Part shown: piece by piece, positions 4,409-37,248 of the stretch
Position numbering within the stretch: the stretch's first letter is position 1
How the letters are laid out: each line of letters begins with the position of its first letter
Assembly: GCA_963842955.1 (NCBI GenBank)
Contig: CAWJIJ010000001.1
Coordinates: forward strand, 84,041-148,040
Source of the DNA: an uncultured Gammaproteobacteria bacterium
Lineage (GTDB): Bacteria; Pseudomonadota; Gammaproteobacteria; Steroidobacterales; XN24
Direction: 5' to 3'
Length of the DNA: 64,000 nt
Program-made: the position numbers and the translations under genes
Notes under the pieces: generated by a model
Databases searched by the model: none
What the model saw: the letters and a program-made list of their open reading frames with translations, nothing else
What the model was told of the DNA's origin: nothing

Positions 4409-6127
4409 TCAGTCGATGGTGACCCGGTTGATTTCTTCGAGGCCCGTCATGCCGGAGCGGACTTTTTCCAGGCCCGCGCGGCGCAGGTCCCAGACCCCCT
4501 CGCGCGCGGCCTGTTCCGCGATCTGCATGGCGTTGCCGCCTTCCATGATGATCCGGCCGATGGCCTCGGTCACCGGCAGAACCTGGTAGATGCCCACCCG
4601 GCCCTTGTAGCCATCGTTGCAGGAGCCGCAGCCCACCGGCGCATAGACGGTAATGCCCGCTTCGATGTCTTCTTTTTCGAAGCCTTCCTTGATCAGCGCT
4701 TCCTCCGGGATGTCCTTGGGCTGCTTGCAGTTGTTGCACAAGCGCCGCGCCAGCCGCTGGGCGATGATCAGGCTCACCGTGGAGGCGATGGCGTAGGGCT
4801 TCACCCCCATGTCCACCAGCCGGGTCAGGGTCTTGGGAGCGTCATTGGTATGCAGGGTGGAGAGCACCAGGTGGCCCGTCTGGGCGGCCTTGATGGCGAT
4901 CTCCGCCGTTTCCAGGTCACGGATCTCACCCACCATGATGATGTCCGGATCCTGGCGCAGAAACGCTTTCAGGGCAGACGCGAAAGTCAGCCCCACTTTG
5001 GGGTTCACGTTGACCTGGTTGATGCCTTGCAGGTTGATTTCCGACGGATCCTCCGCCGTGGAAATGTTCCGGTCCTCGGTATTGAGGATATTGAGACCGG
5101 TGTACAGCGATACCGTCTTACCCGAGCCCGTCGGGCCGGTGACCAGGATCATCCCGTAGGGCTTGGCCAGGGCATCCATGTAGAGTTTTTTCTGGAATTC
5201 CTCGTAGCCCAGGGCGTCGATGCCCAGCTTCGCCGACGACGGATCCAGGATTCGCATCACCACCTTTTCCCCGAACAGCGTGGGACAGGAGTTGACGCGA
5301 AAATCGATGGAGCGGTTCTGGGAGAGCTTCAGCTTGATCCGGCCGTCCTGGGGCACCCGGCGCTCGGCGATGTCCAGCCGGGCCATGACCTTGATGCGGG
5401 CGGTGACCTTGGTGGACAGGGCCAACGGCGGCCGGGCCACTTCCTTGAGCACACCGTCCAGCCGGGTCCGCACCCGGTAGGCCTTCTCATACGGCTCGAA
5501 GTGGATATCCGAGGCGCCCTTGCGGATGGCGTCCAGCAGGACCTTGTTGACGAAGCGAACGACGGGAGCGTCTTCCACGTCGTCGCGGGTAATGTCGTCG
5601 GAGGTCTCCAGCTCGTCGCTGGTCTCCAGGCTGTCGAGATCGAAGTCCTCGTCGTCCAGCGACGACATGGAGGTATCCACGGCCTCCAGGCTCTTGGACA
5701 GGCGCTCCTTGAGCTTGTCCTCCTCCACGATGACCGCTTCCACCGACAGGCTGGTCTGGAAACGGATGTCGTCCACCGCCTGGAGATTGGTGGGATCAGA
5801 GACGCCGATGAACAATTTGCGGCCGCGCCGGAACAGGGGCAGGACCGAGTGCTTCTCCAGCACTTTGGCCTTTACCGAGCGGACCGCTTCCAGGTCGATC
5901 TCTACCGCTTCCAGGTCCAGCACCGGCACGCCGAACTCCTGGGCGGCAGCCTGGGCCAGGTCCCGGGCGTCGGCCAGGTTCTTGGCGACCAGCCAGGCGA
6001 CCAGCGGTGTCTTGTCCTCGCGGGCGTCGTCGATGGCCTGAGTCATGGCCGACTCGTCGATGATACCGTCCTTGACCAGGCGGCGAGGCAGCCCCGTAAG
6101 GGAGGTTTTCAGAGCGGTTACGGCCAT
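4409..6127 (-). CDS. pilB: Type IV pilus assembly ATPase PilB
   Basis: 572 aa. Walker A GPTGSGKT, the Asp box and Walker B (IIMVGEIRD), and the tetracysteine CNNC...CGSC typical of GspE/PilB ATPases. Confidence 0.95.
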   Translation of the reverse strand: MAVTALKTSLTGLPRRLVKDGIIDESAMTQAIDDAREDKTPLVAWLVAKNLADARDLAQAAAQEFGVPVLDLEAVEIDLEAVRSVKAKVLEKHSVLPLFRRGRKLFIGVSDPTNLQAVDDIRFQTSLSVEAVIVEEDKLKERLSKSLEAVDTSMSSLDDEDFDLDSLETSDELETSDDITRDDVEDAPVVRFVNKVLLDAIRKGASDIHFEPYEKAYRVRTRLDGVLKEVARPPLALSTKVTARIKVMARLDIAERRVPQDGRIKLKLSQNRSIDFRVNSCPTLFGEKVVMRILDPSSAKLGIDALGYEEFQKKLYMDALAKPYGMILVTGPTGSGKTVSLYTGLNILNTEDRNISTAEDPSEINLQGINQVNVNPKVGLTFASALKAFLRQDPDIIMVGEIRDLETAEIAIKAAQTGHLVLSTLHTNDAPKTLTRLVDMGVKPYAIASTVSLIIAQRLARRLCNNCKQPKDIPEEALIKEGFEKEDIEAGITVYAPVGCGSCNDGYKGRVGIYQVLPVTEAIGRIIMEGGNAMQIAEQAAREGVWDLRRAGLEKVRSGMTGLEEINRVTID

Positions 6128-6393
6128 GGCGGGTTCAGTCCCTTGCGTATCCCCGGGCGGTCAAGCCCTGTCTTTACGGTCGCCGGACCGTCGGCCCCGC
6201 GGTCCGGGGTTCCCGGGGCGACCGATCCCTTTGCCGGGCCCTCTGCCGGGGCCTCGGACTTGACCATAATATAGGGAAAGCCCCTGAAACAATACGTGAA
6301 CCGGATCTCGCTTCCACGTGTTCTTTCGGAGGTTCTCCGCCTGATTATTCGTCCTGTCCGTGATCTCGAAGGCGGCAGGGAAAGCGTTGGCCG

Positions 6394-6430
6394 GAACGAA
6401 AAAGAGCGCGCCCTCGTAAAGAGGGCGCGC
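6394..6430 (-). terminator. Rho-independent terminator downstream of pilA
   Basis: Perfect 10-bp GC stem (GCGCGCCCTC at 6406-6415, GAGGGCGCGC at 6421-6430) with a 5-nt loop. On the minus-strand transcript it is followed by UCUUUUU. Confidence 0.7.
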
Positions 6431-6478
6431 CCGCGGCGATCCTTGCCAGTTTCTTCCTTGAACTCGATGGTTCCTGCC

Positions 6479-6928
6479 TTAGATGCGGCAGTTGGCCGGG
6501 ACGTACTTGTTGTCCGTAGCGGCGCTAACGGCGCAGGCCCACTCGATCGGGCCGTCCGGCACGGTGCCAGCGGCAAGCGCGGCGCCGCTGGCGGTCGGCG
6601 TCAGGGTCAGCGCCACGTCCTTGGCGTTGGCGTTCATGGTGATGGCGATCTCGCCGTTACCAGCCGTGATGGCCATGGCGTTAACGTTCTCGGTACCGGC
6701 GGCGGGGAAGTCCCAGCCCTGGCCCAGGTCGGCAACCGCCGAAGAGGCGTTCTCGGACACCGTGGACTTGGCCGAAGCGGCCAGGGCCAGGCCCTCGGAA
6801 ACACGCGAGCGAACCAGGTAGTCCTGGTAGGCGGGCAGCGCGATGGCGGCCAGGATGCCGATGATCGCGACCACGATCATCAGTTCGATGAGGGTGAAAC
6901 CCTGCTGCTTGCTGCGAATGTCGTTCAC
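6479..6928 (-). CDS. pilA: Type IVa major pilin
   Basis: Prepilin leader ending in G, then [29 protein letters not shown]-terminal Cys pair forms the disulfide loop. Confidence 0.9.
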
Positions 6929-6999
6929 TTGTCGTCTCCCTAAGAGAAAAGTCTTGTTCGTTGGGTCACACGGCGATGACTCGCCTGTGCCGGGGATGT

Positions 7000-7015
7000 A
7001 TCAAGGGCCGTGCCA
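7000..7015 (-). promoter_or_regulatory. Candidate sigma54 (-24/-12) promoter of pilA
   Basis: The minus strand reads TGGCACGGCCCTTGAT, against the consensus TGGCAC-N5-TTGC. It lies about 72 nt upstream of the pilA ATG. The -12 element is TTGA rather than TTGC. The sigma54 activator gene pilR is adjacent. Confidence 0.5.
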
Positions 7016-7292
7016 ACTCTTGGCTCGGCTATTCCAAGCTGATGAAATTTATAAGTTTTTAGTTGTTTTTCGGGTTCCCGGGCCTGTCGGGAAAATGCGT
7101 CAGCCTGCCGCTGGTCGGGTCAGGAACTGACAATTTGCGTCAGTCTTTTTCCCGAAAGAGGCAATCCGGGTGGCCGGAACCGCTATCGGCCGGGGTTGCC
7201 GAGAAGATTGCCGGCCCCAAAAGGGATCCCAAGGACCCCATCACGTTGCCACTGGGGCCAGATGATCCGCAGGTTCCGGTCATTCGGGGCCG

Positions 7293-8660
7293 CTATTCGA
7301 GTCCCAGCTTCTTGATCCGGTAGCGCAGCGCCCGGAAGCTGATGCCCAGCAGTTTTGCCGCCTGGGTCTTGTTGTAGCGGGTCTGCTCCAGCGCCTTGAC
7401 GATGGCGTCGCGCTCCATGTCTTCGAGCTGGCTGCCCAGGGGGCCGCCGGGGCTTGCGGGCGACGGTCCGGCCCCGCCCCCCGGCGCGGGGCCGGTGCGC
7501 AGCTGGATATCGTCCGCGTCGATGACGCCGTCGTCGCAAAGAGTCAGCGCCCGCTCGAGGACGTTTTCGAGTTCCCTGACATTGCCGGGGAAGTGGTAGC
7601 TCCTCAGGGCTTCGCGGGCGGCGGGAGTCAGTTCCGTGCGGGACAGGCCCATCCGGGGCCCCAGCCTGTTGAGCATGAAACTGGCCAGCTCCAGCACGTC
7701 TTCGCTGCGCTCCCTCAAGGGCGGTACCCGCAGCTCGATAACATTGATCCGGTAATAGAGATCCTCCCGGAAGTCTCCCTCGGCCACGAGTTCGCCCAGG
7801 TCCTTGTGGGTAGCGGACAAAAACCGCACATCCACGGCAATCTCCTTCACCGCCCCCACGGGCCGTACGCTGCGTTCCTGGATGACCCGCAGCAGCTTTA
7901 CCTGCATGTGCAGCGGCAGGTCGGCAATTTCGTCCAGGAACAGCGTGCCGCCCTCGGCGGTGAGGATCAGCCCTTCCTTGTCCCCCGTCGCCCCGGTAAA
8001 GCTGCCCTTCGTGTGACCGAACAGCTCGCTTTCCATGAGTTCCGAGGGGATGGCGCCGCAGTTGACCGGCACGAAGGGCCGGTCGGCCCGCGGCCCGGAA
8101 TCGTGGATCATTCTTGCCACGAGTTCCTTGCCGGTCCCGGACTCGCCGCAGATGTGCACAGGGGCCTGGCTGCGGGCCACCTTTCCCACCATGCGGCGTA
8201 CGCTTTCCATGGTGGCCGAAGATCCGATCAGGCCGCCGGCTTCGTCCGGCGACGCCCCGCGAACGCGGACCGCGGTGGCCACGAGCTTGCGCAGGTCGCC
8301 GATGTCCAGGGGCTTGGACACGAAGTCGAATGCGCCGAGCTTCAGTGCCCGCACGGCGGATTCCACGTTGCCGTGGGCGGTGATGACCGCCACGGGCGTT
8401 CCGGTGCTGTTGGCCTGCATCCACTCCACGAGCTCGAGACCGTCGCCGTCCGGCAGGCGCATGTCCGTCAGGCAAAGGTCAAAGGTGGTTTCGCTGAGCC
8501 GTTCCCGGGCCTCGCCCAGGTCAGCGGCCGTCGTGGGAGCCAGGTCCATCTGTTCGAGGGTCATGGCCAGCAGGTCCCGGATATCGGGCTCGTCGTCGAC
8601 GACGAGCACCCTGGCCCTGTCGGTAGCCGCCGTATCGCTCTTGGATTTCCTGGTTGACAC
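7293..8660 (-). CDS. pilR: Sigma54-dependent response regulator PilR
   Basis: Receiver domain (VLVVDDEPDIRDL), AAA+ sigma54-interaction domain (GESGTGKE, GAFTGA-like GSFTGA) and a C-terminal HTH. I place the start at GTG 8660, which overlaps the pilS stop by 1 nt. The longer ORF to 9017 overlaps pilS and looks like non-coding read-through. Confidence 0.9.
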   Translation of the reverse strand: MSTRKSKSDTAATDRARVLVVDDEPDIRDLLAMTLEQMDLAPTTAADLGEARERLSETTFDLCLTDMRLPDGDGLELVEWMQANSTGTPVAVITAHGNVESAVRALKLGAFDFVSKPLDIGDLRKLVATAVRVRGASPDEAGGLIGSSATMESVRRMVGKVARSQAPVHICGESGTGKELVARMIHDSGPRADRPFVPVNCGAIPSELMESELFGHTKGSFTGATGDKEGLILTAEGGTLFLDEIADLPLHMQVKLLRVIQERSVRPVGAVKEIAVDVRFLSATHKDLGELVAEGDFREDLYYRINVIELRVPPLRERSEDVLELASFMLNRLGPRMGLSRTELTPAAREALRSYHFPGNVRELENVLERALTLCDDGVIDADDIQLRTGPAPGGGAGPSPASPGGPLGSQLEDMERDAIVKALEQTRYNKTQAAKLLGISFRALRYRIKKLGLE

Positions 8661-10327
8661 TACGCCTCCCAGCGCTGGGGATCGGCAAAGATAATACGAA
8701 ATACGCTGCCACCGCCTTCCCTGGGCTCGTAGAGCAGCGCGGCGCCGCTGGAGCCGCACAGCTCCCGGCAGATAAACAGGCCCAGGCCGCTGCCGCCATC
8801 GCCGCTGCGGCCCCGGTAGAACGGCTCGAAGATCCGGTCGGCGGATTCGGTCGGGACTCCCGGCCCCCGATCCCGTACCTCCAGAAACGGCCGGCTGGTC
8901 CCGGCCCGGCGGCCGCTGACCAGCTCGATCAGGATCGCGATGGTCGTGCCGCCCGGTTCGCCGTCTTCGCCAGCCTTCGGCATCCCGTAGCGCACGGCAT
9001 TTTCGCAGAGGTTCCATAGCACCTGGTGCAGATGATCCCGATCCATGCGAACTTCCAGCTCCGGATCGGCGTTTTCAATCACGAGCGCGGACTCGGGAAA
9101 CTGCATCGTGGCCGCGAATTCGGCACGAAACTGGATCAGCCATTCGGGCAGATCAAGGCGCTCCGGCCGCGTGGTTTCCCGTCTGGACAGCTGCAGCACA
9201 TTGTCCACGATCTTGCCGACGCGCTTGGCGTTGGCCACCACGATGCCGGCCAGCTTCTGCTCGCTCTCACCCAGCCGCTCGGACTCCGCGAGCAGCTGGC
9301 CGGCGTGGCTCACCGCGCCGACGGGGTTACGAATCTCGTGGGCGATGCTCGCCGACAGCCGGCCCAGGGCCGCCAGCTTGGTTTGCTGGACCTTCTCCGC
9401 CACGACCGAAACGTCTTCGAGAAAGATCAGGATGGCGCCGCTGCGGGGCCGGCCAATCGGCGCGAAGTAGGGATTGATCATCGTGCTGCCGTCGGCGGCG
9501 GCGAACGCCGGCGGCGTCTCGCTCGTGCCTTCCCGGCGCCAGAGCGCGGCGTAATCGGAGAGGTACTGGGACACGTCCTTCAGATGGAGGCCGCGCCGGG
9601 TGGCGTCGGTACCGAGGTACTTCGCGGCTGCCTGGTTCATCAGGCGGATGCGATCGTCGCCGTCCACGACGATGATGCTTTCGCGCAGGTTCTGGATGAT
9701 GTACTGGTTCAGCTGGGCCAGGTTTTCCAGGTCCACGCTGCGCTGCCGGGCCAGGGCCTCGTTCTCCTGGATCCGCCGCGCCAGCGGGTTTACCGCCAGC
9801 CCGATGAACATGAGGATGGCGCCCAGCACACCGGCCGGCATCATCGAGTCCAGCGTGGCTTCACCGCTGGCCACCAGCAGGTATTGCTGGGCCAGCATCG
9901 CGAGCGCTGCGGCCGACGCGAGAGTCAGCGAGCGCTGCCTGGAGCTGATGAGCCCCAGCGCGCCGATGGTGATCACGAGCAGGTTGCCGAGCCCGGTCCC
10001 CCATCCGGTGGCGTGCACCAGCAGGCTGACCACCGCGATGTCCACCGCGGCCTGGATCAGGATCTGCGCGCTGACGGACGGCCAGCGCTGGGTGACCGCG
10101 AAGTCGTTGATGGCGGCAAACACGAAGGCCGCCAGCGTCGTGGCGAAGAACAGTTCCGGCCGGGCCTGGCCGATGAGATGGGGTTTCTCCGGGTAGAGAA
10201 AGAGCGCCAGCAGAAAGATCGCCGCCAGCATCCGGAAGACATTGAGCAGCCGCAGCACCCGCCAGGAAAACTCCGGGGCGGTGATGTCCGGTGGGCCCGG
10301 TTCGATCAGGGGGGTGACGGTCGACAT
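8660..10327 (-). CDS. pilS: Sensor histidine kinase PilS
   Basis: N-terminal multi-TM domain, H-box SASIAHEIRNP and a C-terminal HATPase (DRGPGV, GGSGLGL). It lies upstream of pilR. Confidence 0.85.
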   Translation of the reverse strand: MSTVTPLIEPGPPDITAPEFSWRVLRLLNVFRMLAAIFLLALFLYPEKPHLIGQARPELFFATTLAAFVFAAINDFAVTQRWPSVSAQILIQAAVDIAVVSLLVHATGWGTGLGNLLVITIGALGLISSRQRSLTLASAAALAMLAQQYLLVASGEATLDSMMPAGVLGAILMFIGLAVNPLARRIQENEALARQRSVDLENLAQLNQYIIQNLRESIIVVDGDDRIRLMNQAAAKYLGTDATRRGLHLKDVSQYLSDYAALWRREGTSETPPAFAAADGSTMINPYFAPIGRPRSGAILIFLEDVSVVAEKVQQTKLAALGRLSASIAHEIRNPVGAVSHAGQLLAESERLGESEQKLAGIVVANAKRVGKIVDNVLQLSRRETTRPERLDLPEWLIQFRAEFAATMQFPESALVIENADPELEVRMDRDHLHQVLWNLCENAVRYGMPKAGEDGEPGGTTIAILIELVSGRRAGTSRPFLEVRDRGPGVPTESADRIFEPFYRGRSGDGGSGLGLFICRELCGSSGAALLYEPREGGGSVFRIIFADPQRWEA

Positions 10328-10541
10328 ATGTAGGGGAAGTTGCGATGGACCATGAGCTGGGTGAAATCCGGATCAGAAAACCGGTTCGGCGGCCGGCGGC
10401 CCGGTTCATTCTGAAGAGCCGCCGGGTCCGGAGCAAGACGCTTTTGCCTAATGCGGCCGATTGGCCCAAAATACGCGCCCCGACTTCGGCGGGTTCTTGT
10501 CCGCCGGGTTTCCTGCCCACCAGCCGCACGTTGGAGCCGGC

Positions 10542-11696
10542 ATGAATCTTCACGAATACCAGTCAAAACAGCTTTTCTCGGAATACGGCATCCCGGTGCC
10601 CCACGGCATTGCCGCCCGGACCGCGGACGATGCGGCCAAGGCCGCCAAGGACATCGGCGGAGACATCTGGGTCGTCAAGGCCCAGGTACATGCCGGCGGC
10701 CGCGGCAAGGCCGGGGGCGTCAAGCTCTGCGAAACCCCCGCAGCAGCGGGTGAAGCCGCCGAGGCCATGCTGGGCTCCACCCTCGTGACCCCGCAGACCG
10801 GTGCCGAGGGCCTGCCGGTCAATGCGGTGATCGTCGAGGCGGGTTCCGGCATCGCTCGAGAACTCTATCTGAGCCTGGTTGTGGACCGAGGCCAGGAGCG
10901 GGTGGTGTTCATGGCCTCGGCCGCCGGGGGCATGGACATCGAGGAAGTGGCCGCCGAAACGCCGGAAAAGATCTTTACCGTGGCGGTGCATCCGGCCGCC
11001 GGTCTGCAGCCCTACCAGGCCCGCCGGCTGGCGTTCGGTCTCGGCCTGGAAGGCGACCAGATCAAGCAGTTCGTCAAGATCGTCCAGGCGCTTTACCAGC
11101 TGTTCATCGAGCGCGACGCGAGCCTCGTGGAGATCAATCCGCTGATCGTGACGAACGACGGCGATGTGGTCGCCCTGGACGCCAAAATCAACATCGAGGA
11201 CAACGCCCTGTTCCGGCAGCCCAAGCTGCGGGAATGGCGTGATCCGTCCCAGGAAGACGAGATGGAGAACCGGGCCAGCGCCCACGATCTCAACTACGTG
11301 TCCCTGGACGGGGACATCGCCTGCATGGTCAACGGCGCGGGCCTGGCCATGGCGACGATGGACCTGATCAAGCTACACGGTGGCGAGCCGGCCAACTTCC
11401 TGGACGTGGGCGGCGGCGCGACCGCCGAGCGGGTGGCCGAGGCCTTCAAGCTGATCCTGTCCAACAAGAACGTGAAGGCGATCCTCGTCAATATCTTCGG
11501 CGGCATTGTGCGCTGCGACCTGATCGCCGAGGGCGTTATCGCCGCCGTCAAGGAAGTGGGTGTGGAGGTGCCGGTGGTCGTGCGCCTCGAGGGCACCAAC
11601 GTGGACAAGGGCCGCGAACTGCTTGCCTCGAGCGGGCTGGACATCATCGCCGCCACGGACCTTACCGACGCCGCCAAGAAAGCGGTGGCCATCTGA
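10542..11696 (+). CDS. sucC: Succinyl-CoA synthetase beta subunit
   Basis: Starts [23 protein letters not shown]-grasp plus ligase-CoA domains. The ORF-track start at 10461 is an upstream extension. Confidence 0.95.
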
Positions 11697-15329: not shown

Positions 15330-16319
15330 ATGGCAGGCCAGCCCCCCTCGGAAGAGACCCTCGAATACCGGGCCGAGGTCCCCGGCGCCCTGTCCGGCAA
15401 GCGCCTGGACCAGGCACTTGCCACCCTGTTTCCGGATTTTTCCCGCAGCCGGCTCAAGGCCTGGATCCTGGCCGGGCGCGTCACCGTAGACGGCCTGGAG
15501 CGACGGCCCCGTGACCCGGTCATCGGCGGCGAACAGGTCCTGCTTCGGGCCGAGCCGGAAACCCGGACGGAGGCGGCGCCGGAACCGATACCGCTGAATG
15601 TGCTGTTCGAAGACGACACCTTGCTGGTTATCGACAAGCCCGCGGGGCTGGTGGTTCACCCCGGGGCGGGAAATCCGAACGGGACGATGCAGAACGCGCT
15701 GCTCCACCACCGCCCGGAGCTTCGGAACGTGCCCCGGGCCGGCATCGTGCATCGGCTGGACAAGGACACGACGGGGGTCATGGTGGTGGCCGGCACCGAG
15801 ACGGCCCATGCAGCGCTCGTCAAGGCCATCGAAGCCCGCGAGGTGCGCCGCGAATACGAGGCGGTCTGTCTCGGGGTGCTGACTGCCGGCGGTACCGTGG
15901 ATGCCAGCATGGGGCGCCATCCCGTGGATCGTCTGCGGATGGCGGTCAGGGACACCGGCAAACCCGCCCGGACCCACTACCGGGTAATGGATCGCTACCG
16001 GGGCCATACTCGCGTGTTGTGCCGGCTGGACACCGGCCGCACCCACCAGATCCGCGTTCATATGGCCCATATTCGCCACCCGCTGGTGGGCGACCCGCTT
16101 TACGGTGGCCGGCTGGCCATACCTCGGGGTGCCACGCCCGAACTGGGCGAGAGCCTGCGGCGATTCCGCCGCCAGGCCCTCCACGCCAGGCGCCTCGCCC
16201 TGATCCATCCCGGTAGCGGCGAGGAGACGAGCTGGGAATCGCCCCTGGCCGCCGACCTGGCCGGCCTGATCCGGGTTATGGAAGCCGACCGGGCCGCCGC
16301 TGAAGCGGACCGGGATTGA
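15330..16319 (+). CDS. rluD: 23S rRNA pseudouridine synthase RluD
   Basis: S4 domain followed by the RluA-family catalytic block HRLDKDTTGVMVV. Part of the conserved bamD/rluD/pgeF neighbourhood. Confidence 0.9.
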   Translation: MAGQPPSEETLEYRAEVPGALSGKRLDQALATLFPDFSRSRLKAWILAGRVTVDGLERRPRDPVIGGEQVLLRAEPETRTEAAPEPIPLNVLFEDDTLLVIDKPAGLVVHPGAGNPNGTMQNALLHHRPELRNVPRAGIVHRLDKDTTGVMVVAGTETAHAALVKAIEAREVRREYEAVCLGVLTAGGTVDASMGRHPVDRLRMAVRDTGKPARTHYRVMDRYRGHTRVLCRLDTGRTHQIRVHMAHIRHPLVGDPLYGGRLAIPRGATPELGESLRRFRRQALHARRLALIHPGSGEETSWESPLAADLAGLIRVMEADRAAAEADRD

Positions 16320-17068
16320 GCGTGTCCGATTCGGAGGTCCTGTGGATCGAGGCGGACTGGCCGGCCCCGGGCCGCGTGCGGGCGCTGACGACGCTACGCA
16401 CCGGCGGCTTGAGCGGCGGGCCGTTTGCGTCGCTGAATCTCGGTGCCCGGGTCGGCGACGATCCGGTGGCGGTGGCGGCGAACCGGCAGCGGCTGGTTTC
16501 CGCCGCGGGCCTGCCCGCGGAACCCGTGTGGCTCAAACAGGTCCACGGGACATCGGTGGTGCGGGCGGACGCCCCGAACGCCCGGGAGGCCGAGGCCGAC
16601 GCGGCGGTCACCGACCAGTCGGGGGTAGTCTGCGCCGTGCTGACGGCGGATTGTCTCCCGGTATTCCTAGCCCGGATGGACGGCAGCGCGGTGGCCGTGG
16701 CCCACGCGGGCTGGCGCGGCCTGGCGGCGGGCGTGATCGAATCCACCATCGCCGCCCTCGGTCCTGCGCAGGGTCCGCTGACGGCATGGCTCGGGCCCGC
16801 CATCGGTCCGGATGCCTTCGAGGTGGGTCCCGAAGTTCACGAGGCGTTTGTTACTGGCCACCCGGAAGACACGTCAGCCTTTCGCGCCGGCCATGGCGAC
16901 CGCTACCTGGCAGACCTCTATGCGCTGGCCCGGGCCCGGCTTACCCGCGCTGGCGTCACCACCGTGAGCGGCGGCGACCGTTGCACCTATACCGAGGAGA
17001 CAGCGTTCTTTTCCCACCGCCGCGACGGCCTGAGCGGCCGCATGGCCAGCCTGATCTGGATGGGATGA
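16316..17068 (+). CDS. pgeF: Peptidoglycan editing factor PgeF (YfiH family)
   Basis: 250 aa with conserved YfiH/laccase-domain blocks (LKQVHG, TADCLPV, AHAGWRG, CTY...FFSHRRDG). The start overlaps the rluD stop (TTG 16316, or in-frame GTG 16322). Confidence 0.85.
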   Translation: MSVSDSEVLWIEADWPAPGRVRALTTLRTGGLSGGPFASLNLGARVGDDPVAVAANRQRLVSAAGLPAEPVWLKQVHGTSVVRADAPNAREAEADAAVTDQSGVVCAVLTADCLPVFLARMDGSAVAVAHAGWRGLAAGVIESTIAALGPAQGPLTAWLGPAIGPDAFEVGPEVHEAFVTGHPEDTSAFRAGHGDRYLADLYALARARLTRAGVTTVSGGDRCTYTEETAFFSHRRDGLSGRMASLIWMG

Positions 17069-17095
17069 CGCCCTGCGTGCCGAGCGCGCAGATCT

Positions 17096-17129
17096 GGTGG
17101 TGGCAACCGGAGGGTGGTGGCAACCGGAC
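17096..17129. repeat. 17-bp tandem repeat x2 (GGTGGTGGCAACCGGAG / GGTGGTGGCAACCGGAC)
   Basis: Read directly from the sequence. It lies in the convergent gap between pgeF and the AsnB-like gene. Confidence 0.85.
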
Positions 17130-17183
17130 AGACTCCTTGGTGCCATTCCGGGCGGAGCGGGCCGCCTGATCAGGCAACACCTG

Positions 17184-19124
17184 TCAGACAACACCTCCGG
17201 TGGGTTGTCTTCGAGCGACCGAATAGCCTGATGCGGGAGTCGGTCGCCAGGTGGCCCTCGGTTCCATGGCCTGCAGCCTCGAGCTGGCCCGGCGCGGCTC
17301 CGGGGCCTCGCGCCAGCCGTTCTCGACTAGCCGGAGAGTGTGTTCTGCGGTCATGAGTTTGCCGATCCAGTGCACATCAGTGCTGGCGATGATCCGGTCT
17401 ACGAAGCGGCCGCCCACGTAATCGCGAATGCGACTTTCGTTGCCCAGCAGCCCGCGGATCTCGGCGTCCATCCCAGGCGTTCTGTACCAGTCGGACCACG
17501 CCTCTCCGGGCGACACCGTGCGGCGGGTCACCACTCGCCGGATCTTTCGTCCGGCCCGTGCCAGCTGGTAGCTGACAGGGCCGTTCTTGGTGAACGCATC
17601 GATGGATAGCTGGCGGTAAGGGATCCTGCTCAGGGTGTTGCTTGCGGCGACCACGGAGGCTTGAAGAAGGCACTCCTTCCGAGGCTGCCGAATGGATTTC
17701 GATGCGGAAAACCCGACCGTTGCGTACTCCAGCTCGTACCCCAGGCGCACGATGTCCGGATCCCAATAGGGTGTTCGAAAACTCGTGAAGCAGTTTGCGA
17801 TCGCGGCCTGTCCGCCGAAGTAGTGGGGACCGGCTTCTTGCATCAAGTACGTAAGGTAGGCGTGAGGGTCGCCAAACTCGCCGTACTCGTCGTTGATCGT
17901 GTCCAGCGCATTCTCGATTATCGCTTCGAAGCAGGGCCAGCGTTCCCCGACGATGGCCGCGTAACAGTCCTTGTCGAGGCGCTGGCGTCCGTCGCGCCAC
18001 ATGGCTGCCGCGTGTGCGGAAAGAATGTGAGGCACATTGCCGGTGCTTGCCAGATGGTCCCTGAAAATATGGTCTCCGGAAACGCCCGTCAGGAGTGCCG
18101 CATATGGCTGGCCGTTTCTGGCAAGCTGCCGATAGACGAACAGCAAATGGGAGCGGTTGATGTTCTGCAGCCCGTCGGAGAGGCGCACCGTCTCCCGGGC
18201 CAGGCGCGGAAGGTCCGACGCGAAGGCGCCGTCCAGGGCCACTGACTTCTGCGCGAGCCCGAGCGTGCGGGCAATGCCGTCAGCCTCCTCGATTTCGCTG
18301 GTTCCGGGAATGCCGTAGGTGAACGAATCCAGGCAGGGCACTGCGTCGTCTGGCAGAGCGGCGAGAACGGCCCGGCAGTCCAGCCCGGCACTGAGTCCGA
18401 GAACTGTAGGACCTGTTTCCGGCACATAGCGTGGCACCACGCGCTGAAAAACTTCTATGGCCTCAGCCACCGCCTCGGGGCCTGTCCGTCGTGGCCGGGA
18501 TGCGCACGGTGGCCGATGGTATCGATGCGAGACCGTGCGGCCCGTGTGCCCCTCGTGTCGCAGAATCGTTCCTCCCGGGATCCGGGTAACGCCTGTCAGG
18601 GGCGTGCGTGTCCCAATGCCGTGATTGAAGAACAGGGATTCGTAAAGCCACTCCTCGGACAACCGCGGGGGCGGGTCTGATCTGCCGAAGAAGGCTCCCA
18701 GCGAGGTGGAAACGAAGGCCGTGTCTTCAGGAAAGGCCGCATAGACCGGCTGCCAGCCGAACGGATCCGTCACGACGCAGAGCTCGCGATGCTGCTTGTG
18801 CAGGAGCAGGAGGGCAAAGGCGCCCCTGAGGTCCGTCACGATCCGATGGTCGGGATCTTCGGTCAGCAGACCACGGCAGATCGCGGTCCAGTCCAGCGCC
18901 CCGGGATTAATGACATCCCCTGCAAGGAGACCCAGGAAGGTTTCGTCTTCATAGCCACTGATCCCGGCGCAGGGTGAACCCGTGCGCGTTGCCAGCCAGG
19001 CACGAGCGTCCGGTGACCTGAACTCATGGCGCCGGCAGTTGGCCAGGGGATCGATCGCCTGAGCGATCTGCGCGCCGTCTGCCCTGGCCGGTCCCCTCGA
19101 AAGCCATATGGCAGCCCCGGCCAT
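17184..19124 (-). CDS. Asparagine synthetase B-like adenylating enzyme lacking the N-terminal Cys nucleophile
   Basis: 646 aa. An Ntn-amidotransferase-like N-domain is followed by LGLSAGLDCRAVLAAL in the position of the SGGxDS PP-loop, then an AsnB-like C-domain. The N-terminus is MAGAAIW, with Ala where MCG is expected. The last ~45 aa are low-complexity and may be read-through. Confidence 0.7.
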   Translation of the reverse strand: MAGAAIWLSRGPARADGAQIAQAIDPLANCRRHEFRSPDARAWLATRTGSPCAGISGYEDETFLGLLAGDVINPGALDWTAICRGLLTEDPDHRIVTDLRGAFALLLLHKQHRELCVVTDPFGWQPVYAAFPEDTAFVSTSLGAFFGRSDPPPRLSEEWLYESLFFNHGIGTRTPLTGVTRIPGGTILRHEGHTGRTVSHRYHRPPCASRPRRTGPEAVAEAIEVFQRVVPRYVPETGPTVLGLSAGLDCRAVLAALPDDAVPCLDSFTYGIPGTSEIEEADGIARTLGLAQKSVALDGAFASDLPRLARETVRLSDGLQNINRSHLLFVYRQLARNGQPYAALLTGVSGDHIFRDHLASTGNVPHILSAHAAAMWRDGRQRLDKDCYAAIVGERWPCFEAIIENALDTINDEYGEFGDPHAYLTYLMQEAGPHYFGGQAAIANCFTSFRTPYWDPDIVRLGYELEYATVGFSASKSIRQPRKECLLQASVVAASNTLSRIPYRQLSIDAFTKNGPVSYQLARAGRKIRRVVTRRTVSPGEAWSDWYRTPGMDAEIRGLLGNESRIRDYVGGRFVDRIIASTDVHWIGKLMTAEHTLRLVENGWREAPEPRRASSRLQAMEPRATWRPTPASGYSVARRQPTGGVV

Positions 19125-19163
19125 CAGCAGCTCCCGGCCGCCGGCACGGTCGTCGCCAGACGC

Positions 19164-20411
19164 CTAGCGGAAGTAGCGGGCATCGAAGTACCACCGGGAA
19201 AGCAGGGGGGCTTGGGCTGCCCAGGCGGGCCCGAGCAGCCGGGAGCCAAGGACATAGCCGAGTCGACGCGGCGACATTTTCAGCAGCAGGTCGCGAGCCC
19301 GGGCCCCGGGGGCCCCGCGCTCCCGGTCCTTCGCTGCCTCCAGTTTCTGTCTTGCCTGGGATCGCGCCATGGCGCCGATGGAGCAGCCGGCTTGGTCCGC
19401 TGCCGTGATGAGCCTGCGCACCTTGTTCGCGAATCCGCCGAGGATGATCTGTTCCCTGGCTGCCTGAGACAGTCCGCCGAGATACCAGCAGAACACCCCT
19501 CCGCTGTTGGACACGAAGCCGGGGATGTAGTCGATCCCCCTGGTGTGCAGTGCGTCTTCGATGTCCGGAGTCGCCGAAATATTCGCCACCGGCACAATGG
19601 CAGAAACCGCCAGCTGGTCCAGGTTGCTCTGGTTCAGACTGTCGGGCGCGCCTCCCGGGACCAGCAGGTCAGCCTTCTGAAGAAAGAGAGCCGCCGGGTC
19701 CTCGAATCGCTGACCCGGAACATGCTGCACGCAGGCATCACCGTAGCGGAGCCGCAGGTTCAGCAGTTCCGATACCGCCAACCCCGACGGGTCATAGACA
19801 GCCCCGGCCCGAGTGGAGACTCCGGCGATTCGCGCGCCGGCTCGATCCAGCAGCTGGATCAGGTGTCCGCCCACCTTGCCGAGACCCTCCAGCAAGATGC
19901 CGGACCCCTGGAGCGTCCGGCCTCGGGACTCGAGCAGGGCGTGGATCGATGACAGGACGCTCAGGGCCGTGAAGAGGTTTGAGTCAATGGCCGGCGGCTC
20001 GTCCGATCCGCCCGGCTTATGGTCTACACCGGCGCCATCCAGGATGGCCACCAGGTCCTGGTCGCCTGAGCCCATGTCCAGGCCACCCACGTACCGGCCA
20101 CTTCGGAGCAGATCCCCGATGGCGGCGCCGAACGCCCGGCAGCGTTGCTGCCGATCGCCCTCGGACAGTTGAGGATCTATCACGAGTCCCGCCTTTGCAC
20201 CGCCGCTTGGAAGGCGCAGCCAGGCGAACTTGAGAGTCATTTCGTGAGCGAGCCGCGCCACCTCATCCGGGGATACGTCGGCGGTAATGCGGATACCGCC
20301 CGTGGCCCGGCCGGCGATGAATTCGTCAACGATGACAAACCCATAGAGATCGGATGCCGGGTCCCCCACGATCCGCCAAAGGGCCGGCTCTTTGCGTTCG
20401 ATAGGGTGCAT
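19164..20411 (-). CDS. Glu/Leu/Phe/Val (ELFV) dehydrogenase family protein
   Basis: GGIRITADV...MTLKFAWLRLPSGGAKAG (ELFV N-domain including the catalytic Lys region) and a GLGKVGG Rossmann motif. I place the start at ATG 20411 (MHPIERKEP), which has GAGGA 4 nt upstream. The ORF-track start at 20582 runs through a DNA repeat array. Confidence 0.75.
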   Translation of the reverse strand: MHPIERKEPALWRIVGDPASDLYGFVIVDEFIAGRATGGIRITADVSPDEVARLAHEMTLKFAWLRLPSGGAKAGLVIDPQLSEGDRQQRCRAFGAAIGDLLRSGRYVGGLDMGSGDQDLVAILDGAGVDHKPGGSDEPPAIDSNLFTALSVLSSIHALLESRGRTLQGSGILLEGLGKVGGHLIQLLDRAGARIAGVSTRAGAVYDPSGLAVSELLNLRLRYGDACVQHVPGQRFEDPAALFLQKADLLVPGGAPDSLNQSNLDQLAVSAIVPVANISATPDIEDALHTRGIDYIPGFVSNSGGVFCWYLGGLSQAAREQIILGGFANKVRRLITAADQAGCSIGAMARSQARQKLEAAKDRERGAPGARARDLLLKMSPRRLGYVLGSRLLGPAWAAQAPLLSRWYFDARYFR

Positions 20412-20453
20412 TTGGTCCTCGATGCTGCTCTGGGCCGAGACGGCGCCCCGCTT

Positions 20454-20582
20454 GTGCCTGTCCATCAGCCAGCCAAGTCCATCAGCCAGCCAGTCCGTGC
20501 CTGTCCACCAGCCAGCCGCCAGTCCTGGCCAGTCCGTGCCTGTCCACCAGCCAGTCCTGGCCTCAGTCCACCAGCCAGCCAC
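20454..20582. repeat. REP-like repeat array with core GTGCCTGTCCA(Y)CAGCCAGCC
   Basis: There are three copies of GTGCCTGTCCA plus partial units. AGTCCGTGCCTGTCCACCAGCCAG occurs at 20492 and 20531 (39-bp period). The 11-mer core is shared with the repeats at 26541-26588 and 28461-28537. Confidence 0.7.
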
Positions 20583-21007
20583 AAAGAACGCGCTCAGGAC
20601 CCGGCTGCCGAGTCAGGTCGTCAGTCTAGGCGGGGAAGGGGGTGTCGGACTGTGAAAAAGCCCGCACTTCTCAACGGTCGTGCCTCGCCCACCCCACCGC
20701 CTGAATTTTCCCCAAATCAATGGGTTGGGATTGTCGTTCGACTGTCTGGGGGTGCCGGCGGGGGCGAACCAGGTCTCCGAGAAGACAGATTTGCCAAATC
20801 AGTTCCAAGGGATCATCGGTGTTGGAAAATCCGCCCTAAATACGGCCTCTTGGGACCTGAAAAGGCGTCGCGCATCGACGAAAGCCAGCACGCCGGAGCC
20901 GTCACGGCCGGAACGGCCTGCAGCGTGGGTACGGGCCGGGCCACGATGGCCGGTTGCGCGTGATTATTTCCGCGGGCGATCTACAGTTCATACAGGCGAC
21001 CCGCTGC

Positions 21008-21035
21008 CTTGAAATTCGGCGGATTCGCCCAATAT
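21008..21035 (+). promoter_or_regulatory. Candidate sigma32 heat-shock promoter of clpB
   Basis: CTTGAAA (21008-21014), a 13-nt spacer, then CCCAATAT (21028-21035), against the consensus CTTGAAA-N13/14-CCCCATNT. It lies 35 nt upstream of the clpB ATG. Confidence 0.6.
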
Positions 21036-21069
21036 ACCCATGAGTTCAATCATTTAGGGGAAGCCCTCC

Positions 21070-23661
<2,592 letters not shown>

Positions 23662-32492: not shown

Positions 32493-32980
32493 GCCTTCTC
32501 AAGGGAGCCCACTCTGCGCTCAACCGATTCGGCAACGCGTAGGTTGTCGCGCCGAGCGCCAGCAGGAGCACCGCGGGCAACGCCGGAACCGGTTTTTGGA
32601 TGGAGCCGCCTCCCCGAATTGACCGGGCCCGCGATGCCCTGTCACCCGGGTCATTACATTGCGGGCCTATGGAGAAGGATCAGCCGGATCGTCGCGGCTC
32701 AGGGGATGCCGCAGCGGATCCCGGCGCTAACGTGCGGGGATGCACTGGTTCCACACGGCAGAATGGAACTGCGCGGAGACCGGCTGGGAAACGAATGTCC
32801 CGCAATCACAGGAGTGATGGCGGGCATGAAACCGTCGCCGAATCGCGGCGAACGTTCTGAAATATGGGTAGCCATTGCGTTTACTGCTTCGTTGCCGGGT
32901 GTCTATCGCTCCCGATGGACAGCCGCCGGGTCTCGCGGATGCGCCCGGAGTCACAACTCGCAGCTGCAAGGAGGCGTCAC

Positions 32981-34975
32981 ATGTCCGACTGTGCAGCGAA
33001 TCGCGATCGTATGGTCGCCGAACAAATCGCCGCGCGAGGCGTGCGCGATCCCCGGGTACTTGCCGCGATGCGCAGCGTCCACCGGGAAGCATTCGTGCCG
33101 GCCGACATGCGCCACCTTGCGTACGAGGATACGCCGCTGCCGATCGCGGCCGGTCAAACAATTTCCCAGCCTTACATCGTGGCTTTCATGGTGGAGGCGC
33201 TGGCGCTGGGCGGCGACGAAAAGGTGCTGGAGATCGGCGCGGGCTCCGGCTATGCGGCGGCCGTTCTGGCCAATCTGGCCGATGAGATTTACACCGTAGA
33301 GCGTGTGGCTGAGCTCGCACGACATGCCGCAAGGTGCCTGCGCGAGGAAGGGTATAACAACGTCCATGTCCGGGAAGCCGATGGCACCCGCGGCTGGATC
33401 GAGCAGGCTCCCTTCGATGCAATCGTCGTATCCGCCGGCGCGCCGGTCATTCCCGAAAGCCTCAAGAGCCAGCTCGCTGTCGGTGGGCGCATGGTCATCC
33501 CCGTGGGGACAGACAAGCGCGCTCAGGAACTGATTCGCATTACTCGCCAGCCCGACGGTAATTTCACCCGCGAGGACCTGGCGGATGTGCGTTTCGTCCC
33601 GCTCATCGGTGAGCAGGGCTGGGAAGTAGACGACATGTCAGCCCCTGCTCGCGTGACCAGGTCCAGCCCGTCTGTCAGTCTCACGATGCCGGGTCTGATC
33701 TTGCGAAACAGCGAATCATTCGATACGCCGGAAGAATCCAATTTTGATGCCTTGCTGCAACGGATCGGCGATGCCCGGGTGGTCTTGCTGGGCGAGGCAA
33801 GCCATGGCACGTCGGAGTTTTACCGACTCAGAGCGTCAATTACGCAACGTCTGATCGAGGAGAAGGGATTCAATATCGTCGCGGTCGAAGCGGACTGGCC
33901 CGACGCGGCGCGGATCGATCACTACATACGCCATCGGGACACGACACCGTCGGCATGGATCGCCTTTGCACGATTCCCGACCTGGATGTGGCGCAATGCC
34001 GAGGTACGGGATTTCGTTGACTGGCTGCACGAATACAACAAGCCGCTGGATGCGCACCGGCGTGTCGCGTTCTATGGGCTCGACCTATACAGCCTGTACA
34101 CCTCCGCGCGCGCGGTCATCGAGTATCTAGAGGACGTCGACCCGGATCTTGCGGACGTGGCGCGGTGGCGTTACGGGTGTCTGAGCCCTTGGGAGGCAGA
34201 TCCCGCGGCTTACGGGCGCGCGGCACTGACCGGGCGCTACCGGAACTGCGAAAGCGAAGTCGCCCAGATCCTGGTCAGCCTGTACAAAAATCGGCAGGAG
34301 TACGCCCAAAAGGACGGCGCACGCTTTCTCGATGCCTCACAAAATGCCGCGCTTGTCACAAATGCGGAACGTTACTACAGGATCATGTATTACGGGTCCC
34401 GAGCATCGTGGAACCTGCGTGACACTCACATGTTCGACACCCTCAAGCGGGTCTTAACGTCACGGGGGCATGGCGCGAAAGCCGTCGTGTGGGCGCATAA
34501 CTCCCATGTCGGCGATGCTTCTGCCACTGAAATGTCGACTCGCGGGGAACAGAATATCGGCCAGCTTTGCCGCGAGGCCTTCGGCGGGGATTCCCGTCAT
34601 GTCGGATTCGGAACCGACCACGGCACCGTGGCCGCGGCATCCGACTGGGATGGGCCCCTGGAGATCAAAAACGTGGTTCCGGCACACAGACAAAGCTACG
34701 AGTATCTGTTCCACAGGACTGAACAGCCGGGCCTGGTCCTGTCGCTCAGGGACAACCCGAATCTTGAGCTCGTCGGCGAGCTCGCCGCCCCGCGCCTGGA
34801 ACGCGCAATCGGCGTGATCTATAGGCCGGAGACTGAAATGGCGAGCCATTATTTCGAAGCCATTCTCCCCCTGCAGTTCGATGAATATATCTGGGTGGAT
34901 CACAGCACGGCGGTATCGCCGCTGACCACGGCCGAGCTTCGAGGGGTGCCCGATACGTATCCGTTCGGCCTCTGA
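32981..34975 (+). CDS. Fusion protein: protein-L-isoaspartate O-methyltransferase domain plus erythromycin-esterase-like domain
   Basis: The N-terminal ~210 aa carry TISQPYIVAFM and the SAM motif VLEIGAGSGYAAAVLA (Pcm). The C-terminal ~430 aa carry VVLLGEASHGTSEFY and WAHNSHVGD (EreA/ChaN-like family). AAGGAGG lies 7 nt upstream of ATG 32981. Confidence 0.8.
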   Translation: MSDCAANRDRMVAEQIAARGVRDPRVLAAMRSVHREAFVPADMRHLAYEDTPLPIAAGQTISQPYIVAFMVEALALGGDEKVLEIGAGSGYAAAVLANLADEIYTVERVAELARHAARCLREEGYNNVHVREADGTRGWIEQAPFDAIVVSAGAPVIPESLKSQLAVGGRMVIPVGTDKRAQELIRITRQPDGNFTREDLADVRFVPLIGEQGWEVDDMSAPARVTRSSPSVSLTMPGLILRNSESFDTPEESNFDALLQRIGDARVVLLGEASHGTSEFYRLRASITQRLIEEKGFNIVAVEADWPDAARIDHYIRHRDTTPSAWIAFARFPTWMWRNAEVRDFVDWLHEYNKPLDAHRRVAFYGLDLYSLYTSARAVIEYLEDVDPDLADVARWRYGCLSPWEADPAAYGRAALTGRYRNCESEVAQILVSLYKNRQEYAQKDGARFLDASQNAALVTNAERYYRIMYYGSRASWNLRDTHMFDTLKRVLTSRGHGAKAVVWAHNSHVGDASATEMSTRGEQNIGQLCREAFGGDSRHVGFGTDHGTVAAASDWDGPLEIKNVVPAHRQSYEYLFHRTEQPGLVLSLRDNPNLELVGELAAPRLERAIGVIYRPETEMASHYFEAILPLQFDEYIWVDHSTAVSPLTTAELRGVPDTYPFGL

Positions 34976-37123: not shown

Positions 37124-37150
37124 GACTTGCTCCGTCGCGTCGGGCAGATC

Positions 37151-37167
37151 GTTCTATTTTATAGAAC
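37151..37167. promoter_or_regulatory. Candidate LysR box (T-N11-A palindrome) in the lysR/dabB intergenic region
   Basis: GTTCTAT-TTT-ATAGAAC is a perfect 7-3-7 palindrome containing T-N11-A (T37153...A37165). It sits inside a locally AT-rich stretch (37150-37205). Confidence 0.45.
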
Positions 37168-37248
37168 GTAAAGTTAAAAATAATCAATTTTACTAATGAA
37201 AAAATCCGCGGCAGCATACGTGCCCTCTGACGCGAAAGGTGATCGCCC

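Follow-up and report, generated by a model that had tools for sequence, protein, structure and literature searches.

The stretch of DNA analyzed here, hereafter the window, spans 64,000 nucleotides (64 kb) of contig CAWJIJ010000001.1 from an uncultured gammaproteobacterium. Between the end of pgeF at position 17068 and the start of clpB at position 21070, it carries two genes in the same orientation on the minus strand, 39 bp apart, an arrangement reported in a preliminary description of this DNA and confirmed here by the coordinates of the open reading frames (ORFs). The upstream gene codes for a homologue of the ELFV (Glu/Leu/Phe/Val) dehydrogenases, and the downstream gene for a protein of the AsnB (asparagine synthetase) superfamily, hereafter the AsnB-like protein. 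Two related loci serve as references throughout: L001, a locus of a metagenome-assembled genome (MAG) that is 98% identical to the window (the nearest MAG is GCA_942490595.1), and L020, a 73%-identical relative. The features of the locus are listed below.

19164..20411, minus strand: ELFV-family dehydrogenase homologue, 415 aa (ORF call, Pfam, fold and conserved residues)
17184..19124, minus strand: AsnB-superfamily protein, 646 aa, starting with MAGAAIW (ORF call, Pfam, profile and fold matches)
19125..19163, minus strand: intergene spacer of 39 nt with a GGGAG ribosome-binding site (sequence reading)
20412..20740, minus strand: upstream region of the cassette, presumed promoter/regulatory region, containing a direct-repeat array (conservation with L020)
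17069..17183, no strand assigned: stretch separating the convergent pgeF and AsnB-like genes, in which 17 bp are duplicated in tandem (TRF and repeat search)
16316..17068, plus strand: pgeF (yfiH), last gene of the bamD / rluD-pgeF block (Pfam Cu-oxidase_4, 254.7 bits)
21008..23661, plus strand: clpB (ORF 21070-23661) with a sigma-32-like promoter (ORF and translation; same arrangement in L001 with ClpB Pfam domains)

In E. coli K-12, the corresponding genes are contiguous (bamD / rluD-yfiH-clpB), confirming that the cassette interrupts an otherwise conserved rluD-pgeF-clpB block. As initially proposed, clpB appears to have its own sigma-32-like promoter, with candidate elements CTTGAAA-N13-CCCAATAT read at positions 21008-21035 that fit the sigma-32 consensus. 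Shine-Dalgarno sequences precede the start codons of both cassette genes (GAGGA for the dehydrogenase and GGGAG for the AsnB-like protein), and the ATG of the dehydrogenase gene at position 20411 agrees with the N-termini of its homologues.

The dehydrogenase homologue matched the Pfam families ELFV_dehydrog_N (60.8 bits) and ELFV_dehydrog (96.3 bits), both above their cutoffs. The GGIR, MTLKF, PSGGAKAG and GLGKVGG motifs from which its membership in the Glu/Leu/Phe/Val dehydrogenase family had been deduced are all present, and the assignment holds. Its best match in the PDB is plant glutamate dehydrogenase (GDH) GDH1 (6yeh, 2e-34), and its AlphaFold2 model (pLDDT 91.7) aligned with hexameric GDHs with a Foldseek TM-score of 0.76. 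K61 (MTLK), K73 (GGAK), D112, N302 and the GxGxxG motif (G176-x-G178) are invariant in 24 homologues, and the catalytic set of the ELFV family is retained: the catalytic Lys of GGAK, the Lys and Asn that bind the alpha-carboxylate, and the catalytic Asp. The protein thus has the full-length fold, Rossmann GxGxxG motif and catalytic Lys/Lys/Asp/Asn common to hexameric GDHs such as Arabidopsis GDH1 and to Leu, Phe, Val and Trp dehydrogenases. However, identity to the hexameric GDHs is only ~25%, and the present enzyme differs from them by changed side-chain determinants and an extra C-terminal segment.

The positions that line the side-chain pocket of GDH are altered. According to the alignment with 6yeh, and in the numbering of Clostridium symbiosum GDH, K89 is replaced by Thr (ATGGIR instead of MKGGIR), S380 by Trp (GGVFCW instead of GGVTVS) and A163 by Gly. 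All three replacements are conserved in the ELFV clade associated with the AsnB-like protein, across which TGGIR, G110 and GGVFCW are conserved. K89 and S380 are the residues that bind the gamma-carboxylate of glutamate in GDH. Since both are replaced, the dehydrogenase should act on a true pair of 2-oxo acid and alpha-amino acid other than 2-oxoglutarate and glutamate. Every NCBIfam equivalog scored far below its cutoff, the best being GdhB (114.5 bits versus 620); together with the K89 and S380 replacements, this rules out a glutamate dehydrogenase proper. Furthermore, the protein carries a helical C-terminal extension of ~70 aa that ends with RxYFDARYFR (residues about 340-415, window positions 19164-19390). 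The extension is kept throughout the pair-associated clade and, in the same alignment, is absent from the distant homologues P0134, P0150, P0166 and P0170. It could be a docking or membrane-association element.

The AsnB-like protein matched GATase_7 (26.4 bits, cutoff 25) and Asn_synthase (21.0 bits, cutoff 21) in Pfam. Profile comparisons matched it to carbapenam synthetase CarA (1.5e-15) and to beta-lactam synthetase (BLS; 1e-13). Its AlphaFold2 model (pLDDT 85.5) aligned over ~600 columns with BLS, the hydroxyamidotransferase TsnB9, CarA and AsnB with E-values between 1e-21 and 1e-15, and Foldseek ranked BLS first (E-value of 2e-21), followed by TsnB9 (TM-score up to 0.70), CarA and then AsnB. 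The AsnB layout recognized earlier, with the LGLSAGLDCRAV motif at the PP-loop, is thus backed by Pfam, profile and fold matches alike. The PP-loop LSAGLDCR (residues 244-251) aligns with the LSGGLDS motif of CarA, BLS and AsnB, and the segments S245-x-G247-L-D249-C/S-R251, GVSGDHxFRDH and FRTPYWDPD are conserved among 22 relatives. The N-terminal nucleophile (Ntn)-like domain is full length, with D70 and D120 among the conserved residues kept. Residues 610-646 (17184-17294) form a disordered Pro/Arg-rich tail of ~40 residues that is limited to the lineage of the window, L001 and L020, whereas other members of the family end near residue 605-610. The stop codon of the gene lies within an imperfect tandem repeat of 14 bp.

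The N-terminal MAGAAIW sequence had been read as placing Ala at the position of the obligatory Cys nucleophile of glutamine-dependent enzymes. Our results support this reading and show that the loss of Cys is family-wide rather than an artefact of the start codon. Position 2 is A, T, S or P in 22 of 22 aligned relatives and never Cys, and a Met-Cys start was found in none of 98 full-length representatives, which begin mostly with MS (33), MP (21) or MA (20). Many members start with MSGxxG, MPGxxG or MAGxxG, that is, an AsnB N-terminus in which the nucleophile has been replaced. In addition, the Asn-Gly-Glu position involved in the oxyanion hole and glutamine binding, mapped by eye, reads AGD. 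No upstream start could restore an N-terminal Cys, because the TAG stop codon of the dehydrogenase gene lies in frame 13 codons upstream of the ATG of the AsnB-like gene, and none of these codons specifies Cys. Since the nucleophile is absent, the residues at the N-terminus indicate that the protein cannot be a glutamine amidotransferase, and the conserved PP-loop suggests that it most likely still adenylates a carboxylate. The lack of a Met-Cys start and NCBIfam scores far below cutoff for TIGR01536 (49.5 versus 267.1) and for the PEP-CTERM amidotransferase family TIGR03108 (26.7 versus 816.9) rule out that it is a glutamine-hydrolyzing asparagine synthase or a member of the WbpS type.

As the two genes share the same reading frame, a single stop-codon change or read-through at positions 19125-19166 would give an ELFV-AsnB fusion protein; no natural fusion of this kind occurred among the family matches.

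The closest relatives of solved structure are BLS (1jgt/1mbz), CarA (1q15) and TsnB9 (7ylz), in keeping with the kinship to Cys-less amide- and lactam-forming enzymes put forward in the preliminary description. Like the AsnB-like protein, BLS and CarA have a two-domain AsnB fold that has lost the Cys, and they form an amide bond by ATP/PP-loop chemistry without glutamine, as we propose for the present protein. However, BLS and CarA catalyze an intramolecular beta-lactam closure in antibiotic clusters by means of a catalytic Tyr-Glu dyad and a Lys. The present protein shares only 15-18% identity with them, is ~100 residues longer, and occurs in a glycan context with an ELFV partner. No clavam or carbapenem gene was found near the pair in any examined locus. 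TsnB9 gave the best TM-scores of the fold search (0.63-0.70) at an identity of ~15%; this AsnB-like enzyme of trichostatin biosynthesis joins a non-ammonia nitrogen nucleophile to a carboxylate. Unlike the present protein, TsnB9 keeps a working N-terminal hydrolytic domain.

A word-indexed search recovered ~54 relatives of the AsnB-like protein, and an exhaustive profile search 306 clusters at 50% identity (E-value ≤ 1e-30). Nearly all of the ~54 relatives are metagenomic. The few that are named belong to MAGs of Woeseiaceae or other Gammaproteobacteria and are annotated merely as 'asparagine synthase-related'. Only three of 185,579 GTDB species representatives carry the family, two Woeseiaceae and one Krumholzibacteriota. 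To survey the pairing, 45 loci were searched by tblastn with the reference proteins, and those in which the AsnB-like protein reached 38% identity and the DNA upstream of its gene extended over 1.3 kb or more were retained. In every one of these loci (about 15 independent contigs: L001-L004, L006/7, L011, L012, L020-L024, L026-L028 and L033, mostly from Woeseiaceae or marine-sediment metagenomes), the gene directly upstream, in the same orientation, codes for an ELFV homologue. Furthermore, at least 20 matches in the lists of ELFV and AsnB-like homologues fall on contigs of equal size. An AsnB-like clade at 31-35% identity has no ELFV partner.

Therefore, the cassette is not the orphan that it was first taken for but a conserved two-gene unit, which in most relatives lies inside exopolysaccharide loci. 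The suspicion that the pairing does not correspond to any described pathway held up, as our literature search on the pairing or a characterized cluster found nothing relevant beyond WbpS-type amidotransferases. No member of the AsnB-like clade (about 300 clusters) has a curated annotation, and the literature searched and the curated families cover neither the pairing nor either of the two clades. The chemistry of each component is known, as is the broader concept that exopolysaccharide loci encode amidoligases.

The loci that harbor the pair fall into three types. Type A loci comprise a convergent WecA-like gene and a WecG/TagA-like glycosyltransferase gene, followed by export, chain-length and tyrosine-kinase genes, and also carry genes for sulfotransferases, sugar aminotransferases and a UDP-GlcNAc-3-dehydrogenase-like oxidoreductase. 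The export, chain-length and tyrosine-kinase genes matched the XrtA/PEP-CTERM versions best in NCBIfam, but below cutoff; in L002, these were pepcterm_export (138 versus 180 bits), pepcterm_ChnLen (226 versus 279) and pepcterm_TyrKin (142 versus 231). No exosortase gene was seen in the 20-kb loci, and the window carries none of these genes. In type B loci, the pair is accompanied by genes for a D-2-hydroxyacid dehydrogenase, a PhyH-family dioxygenase and a 'sugar-transfer-associated' ATP-grasp protein, with GT4, deacetylase and CapK-like genes nearby. Type C, in which the neighbors are housekeeping genes, is represented only by the window, L001 (same pgeF/clpB context, 98-99% identity) and L020. 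The usual home of the pair is an exopolysaccharide locus of marine-sediment bacteria, in type A probably one of XrtA/PEP-CTERM-like kind.

Members of either family that lack the other occur in comparable surroundings. Around the genes of the partnerless AsnB-like proteins (31-35% identity) lie GT2/GT4, Wzy, polysaccharide deacetylase and CapK-like genes. In another exopolysaccharide locus, the gene for an ELFV homologue of 40% identity has as neighbors those for two adenylating enzymes of the CapK-like kind, a 2-hydroxyacid dehydrogenase and a FemAB-like protein, which suggests that the dehydrogenase supplies a building block to different ligases. On another metagenomic contig, L014, an ELFV gene without AsnB-like partner lies 2 kb from genes for a fatty-acid-hydroxylase fused to GH3 (acyl-acid amido synthetase) and for an MR_MLE enzyme (5411-7966 and 10001-11236); the GH3 fusion is possibly another amide-forming partner for an ELFV dehydrogenase. 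Finally, in P0429, a product of 757 aa and the only long match, a distant member of the AsnB-like family (28% identity to the N-domain) is preceded by ~500 residues of a multi-pass membrane protein that resembles a Wzx-type flippase and has no similarity to ELFV proteins. Either P0429 is a genuine fusion with a polysaccharide transporter, or it stems from a run-on in gene calling.

We compared the pgeF region of the window with those of its relatives. In L019 and L018, the closest relatives by PgeF with usable contigs (74% and 69% identity, respectively), bamD / rluD-pgeF is followed by corA (L018, 2938-4080; L019, 2743-2907) after spacers of 144-158 bp, and the pair is missing. As corA and not clpB follows pgeF in these nearest relatives, the rluD-pgeF-clpB block is itself variable in this lineage. 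In L020, the pair (82% identity for the ELFV protein and 73% for the AsnB-like protein) is divergent from corA (2-202), the encoded CorA N-terminus is 75% identical to that of L018, and the leader region is shared. Neither corA nor a corA remnant was found in the window. The ~330 bp upstream of the dehydrogenase gene are conserved between the window and L020 despite the different neighbor, clpB in one and corA in the other, indicating that the cassette moves with its own control region.

The preliminary description had proposed an acquired module. The presence of pgeF directly before corA in relatives with 69-74% PgeF identity supports acquisition or relocation of the pair between pgeF and clpB, and the presence/absence pattern at this site upholds the proposal. 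It falls short of strict empty-site proof, because L020 ends 37 bp past the stop codon of the AsnB-like gene and no relative was recovered in which clpB comes directly after pgeF. Composition gave no sign of a recent transfer: the GC content at third codon positions of the pair (0.73-0.77, versus 0.82-0.85 for the flanks) lies within the range of the window (0.71-0.86), and the codon-usage distance is ordinary. Regardless of their origin, both genes are under purifying selection in this lineage, as the ratio of nonsynonymous to synonymous substitution rates (dN/dS) against L020 was 0.13 for the ELFV gene and 0.22 for the AsnB-like gene, at a dS of about 0.75, and 0.14 and 0.13, respectively, against L001.

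The borders of the cassette contain repeats of a different nature from that first assumed. The array at 20454-20582, described as resembling repetitive extragenic palindromic (REP) elements, is real but is made up of GTCCAYCAGCCAGCC repeated five times in direct orientation, at irregular intervals of 17-39 nt. It contains no palindrome or inverted repeat, and its folding is no better than that of shuffled sequences (z = -0.4), hence its identity as REP was not retained. Matches to GTCCAYCAGCCAGCC in the window are all at this site (5 observed versus 0.64 expected). The array is shorter in L001 (about 8560-8690) and absent from L020 (about 400-470). Located just upstream of the start of the dehydrogenase gene, it is possibly a phase- or expression-variable element or an array of regulator-binding sites. 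At the other border, the 17-bp tandem repeat was located at 17096-17128, and is a single copy in L001, but the hairpin reported with it (17096-17215) has a stability expected by chance (z = 0.03). No significant 3' hairpin or terminator and no U-tract were found in 17069-17183. Likewise, the 490-bp spacer between clpB and the dehydrogenase gene gave no Rfam match at E-values ≤ 0.1 and fold z-scores of ~0, and no sigma-70 consensus site was found in 20412-20740. The repeats being direct, unique to their site and variable in copy number, and no transposase or integrase gene lying nearby, borders made of mobile or REP elements were ruled out. The border repeats are local variable tandem repeats and not REP elements or insertion scars.

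Taken together, we consider with moderate confidence that the pair is one functional unit building an amide-linked substituent derived from an amino acid, most likely on a sugar of a cell-surface polysaccharide, the likely role to which the exopolysaccharide context of the relatives leads. In the proposed mechanism, the dehydrogenase would use NAD(P)H and ammonia to interconvert a 2-oxo acid and the corresponding L-alpha-amino acid, as its conserved residues suggest. In type B loci, the oxo acid could come from the adjacent 2-hydroxyacid dehydrogenase and be tailored by the PhyH hydroxylase. The PP-loop domain of the AsnB-like protein would then adenylate a carboxylate, converting ATP to AMP and PPi as is typical of the family, and an amine would attack the acyl-adenylate to give the amide. 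The partners could be the carboxylate of a uronic acid and the amine of the new amino acid, or the carboxylate of the amino acid and the amine of an amino sugar. We infer the direction of the reaction and both substrates, as well as that the copy in the window would serve a polysaccharide encoded elsewhere.

Related activities are known from such loci. In O-antigen and PEP-CTERM-type loci, the AsnB-type enzymes WbpS, WbqG and PGN_1234 turn uronic acids into uronamides (PMC7468200; PMC2615507). Together with the 'XrtA/PEP-CTERM system amidotransferase' family (TIGR03108), they are members of the AsnB superfamily that turn a sugar carboxylate into an amide via an acyl-adenylate (PMC7468200). Their loci resemble those of the pair in carrying export, chain-length, tyrosine-kinase, deacetylase and FemAB/VimA-like genes. 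However, WbpS-type enzymes keep the N-terminal Cys and use glutamine, whereas the present protein is Cys-less and has an ELFV dehydrogenase encoded upstream. The same role as proposed here, in which amines or acyl groups derived from amino acids are attached to surface-polysaccharide sugars, is attributed to ATP-grasp, CapK-like and FemAB/VimA-type amidoligases of capsule and exopolysaccharide loci, of which the glucuronamide ligase of Campylobacter jejuni HS:2 is an example. Genes for amidoligases of these three kinds co-occur with the pair in relatives, but the enzymes have unrelated folds and activation chemistry, and none has been described with an ELFV dehydrogenase.

Several observations weigh against a role in decorating polysaccharides. 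The case is built from sequence, predicted structure and gene context; the Pfam scores of the AsnB-like protein are only just at threshold, and the mapping of residues in the synthetase site covers the PP-loop only. The link to exopolysaccharides is one of guilt by association, and in loci such as L002 and L003 the pair lies at the edge of the cluster, beside gltX or unknown genes. The ELFV homologue of L014, which is 47% identical, stands alone in a complete metagenomic chromosome of 4.68 Mb without an AsnB-like neighbor. Finally, polysaccharide genes are absent from the 64-kb window and from at least 17 kb on one side of the pair and 43 kb on the other, hence the local copy may act on a soluble metabolite.

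This last point leads to an alternative close to the view of the preliminary description, a self-contained small-molecule pathway in which the dehydrogenase would make an amino acid that the BLS-like enzyme amidates or cyclizes to a lactam, an amide osmolyte or a secondary metabolite. In its favor, the pair is found by itself amid housekeeping genes in the window, L001 and L020 and yet is under purifying selection. In sequence as in fold, the AsnB-like protein is matched best by the lactam-forming BLS and CarA and not by AsnB, and the PhyH hydroxylase and 2-hydroxyacid dehydrogenase of type B loci look like small-molecule tailoring enzymes. Nevertheless, we regard such a pathway as rather unlikely, as most homologous pairs lie inside or at the border of exopolysaccharide loci and no transporter, regulator or further tailoring gene accompanies the pair at the housekeeping site. 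Moreover, the alpha-amino acid produced by an ELFV enzyme lacks the beta- or gamma-amine suited to the ring closure catalyzed by BLS and CarA. Another reading, in which the two proteins would form an amidotransferase, with the dehydrogenase freeing ammonia by oxidative deamination and handing it to the AsnB-like synthetase to yield a primary amide such as a uronamide, strikes us as improbable. It would account for the strict pairing and tight gene spacing, and for a nucleophile lost family-wide from an Ntn-like fold that keeps D70 and D120; the C-terminal helical segment of the dehydrogenase could dock, and the known AsnB-type enzymes of such loci make primary uronamides (PMC7468200). On the other hand, the AsnB-like clade at 31-35% identity is equally Cys-less but has no ELFV partner, hence an ELFV protein is not the general answer to a missing glutaminase. 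An ELFV homologue also partners unrelated CapK-type ligases, and the remodeled and conserved pocket favors a specific carbon substrate over a mere source of ammonia. We are not aware of any dehydrogenase that serves as an ammonia-donor subunit. A physical complex in which the dehydrogenase replaces the glutaminase and channels ammonia, or a nascent amino or imino acid, into the synthetase site seems more doubtful still.

Two further explanations were given very little weight. Decay of the genes into non-functional passengers after a rearrangement would fit a pair displaced from its usual exopolysaccharide context with variable repeats at both borders, but is highly improbable: both frames are intact, all family-invariant residues are present, the ribosome-binding sites are good, the upstream region is conserved with L020, and the low dN/dS against both L020 and L001 largely refutes it. 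Least probable of all, at the far end of the scale, is that the AsnB-like protein acts on a peptide or polyketide as a lasso-peptide or albusnodin/ikarugamycin-type cyclase. The weak NCBIfam matches to a macrolactam cyclase (21.9 bits) and a lasso cyclase (21 bits) hint at this activity but are far under the cutoffs of 300 and 525 (NF033561 and NF033535), the full-length Ntn-like domain is kept, and neither here nor in relatives did the surroundings of the pair contain a gene for a B-protein, a peptidase or an ABC exporter, or an ORF plausible as a precursor. A cyclase of ribosomally synthesized and post-translationally modified peptides, including lasso peptides, was therefore rejected on these scores and on the lack of a precursor or leader peptidase. 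An anti-phage defense system was also discarded, as neither protein had a PADLOC match.

Elsewhere in the window, two other loci drew our attention. An ORF of 703 aa (32864-34975, plus strand) codes for an unusual fusion of a protein-L-isoaspartate O-methyltransferase domain (PCMT, 208 bits) to a full erythromycin-esterase-like domain (435 bits). Furthermore, a LysR regulator gene (36215-37123, minus strand) is divergent from genes for a DabB-like Proton_antipo_M protein (37249-38829) and DabA (38826-41306, 901 bits). Together, they make up a DAB inorganic-carbon pump operon (36215-41306), hinting at an autotrophic lifestyle.

Marine bacterial polysaccharides often carry amide-linked amino acids or uronamides. 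These groups influence how charged the polymers are, how they bind metals and how well they resist degradation, but few of the enzymes that add them are known. The pair described here provides a testable candidate, made up of a Cys-less AsnB clade of about 300 clusters and an ELFV clade whose substrate pocket is new. Both clades occur mainly in Woeseiaceae-like bacteria, a group abundant in marine sediments. The stand-alone copy found in the window is a convenient minimal system for heterologous expression. Characterization of the pair would add a new specificity to the much-engineered family of ELFV dehydrogenases and a new intermolecular reaction to the BLS-like branch of AsnB enzymes. Should the two proteins prove to form a channeling complex of the kind considered above, they would represent a new class of redox-coupled amidotransferase and reveal a previously unknown amide-linked substituent on exopolysaccharides of marine-sediment bacteria.

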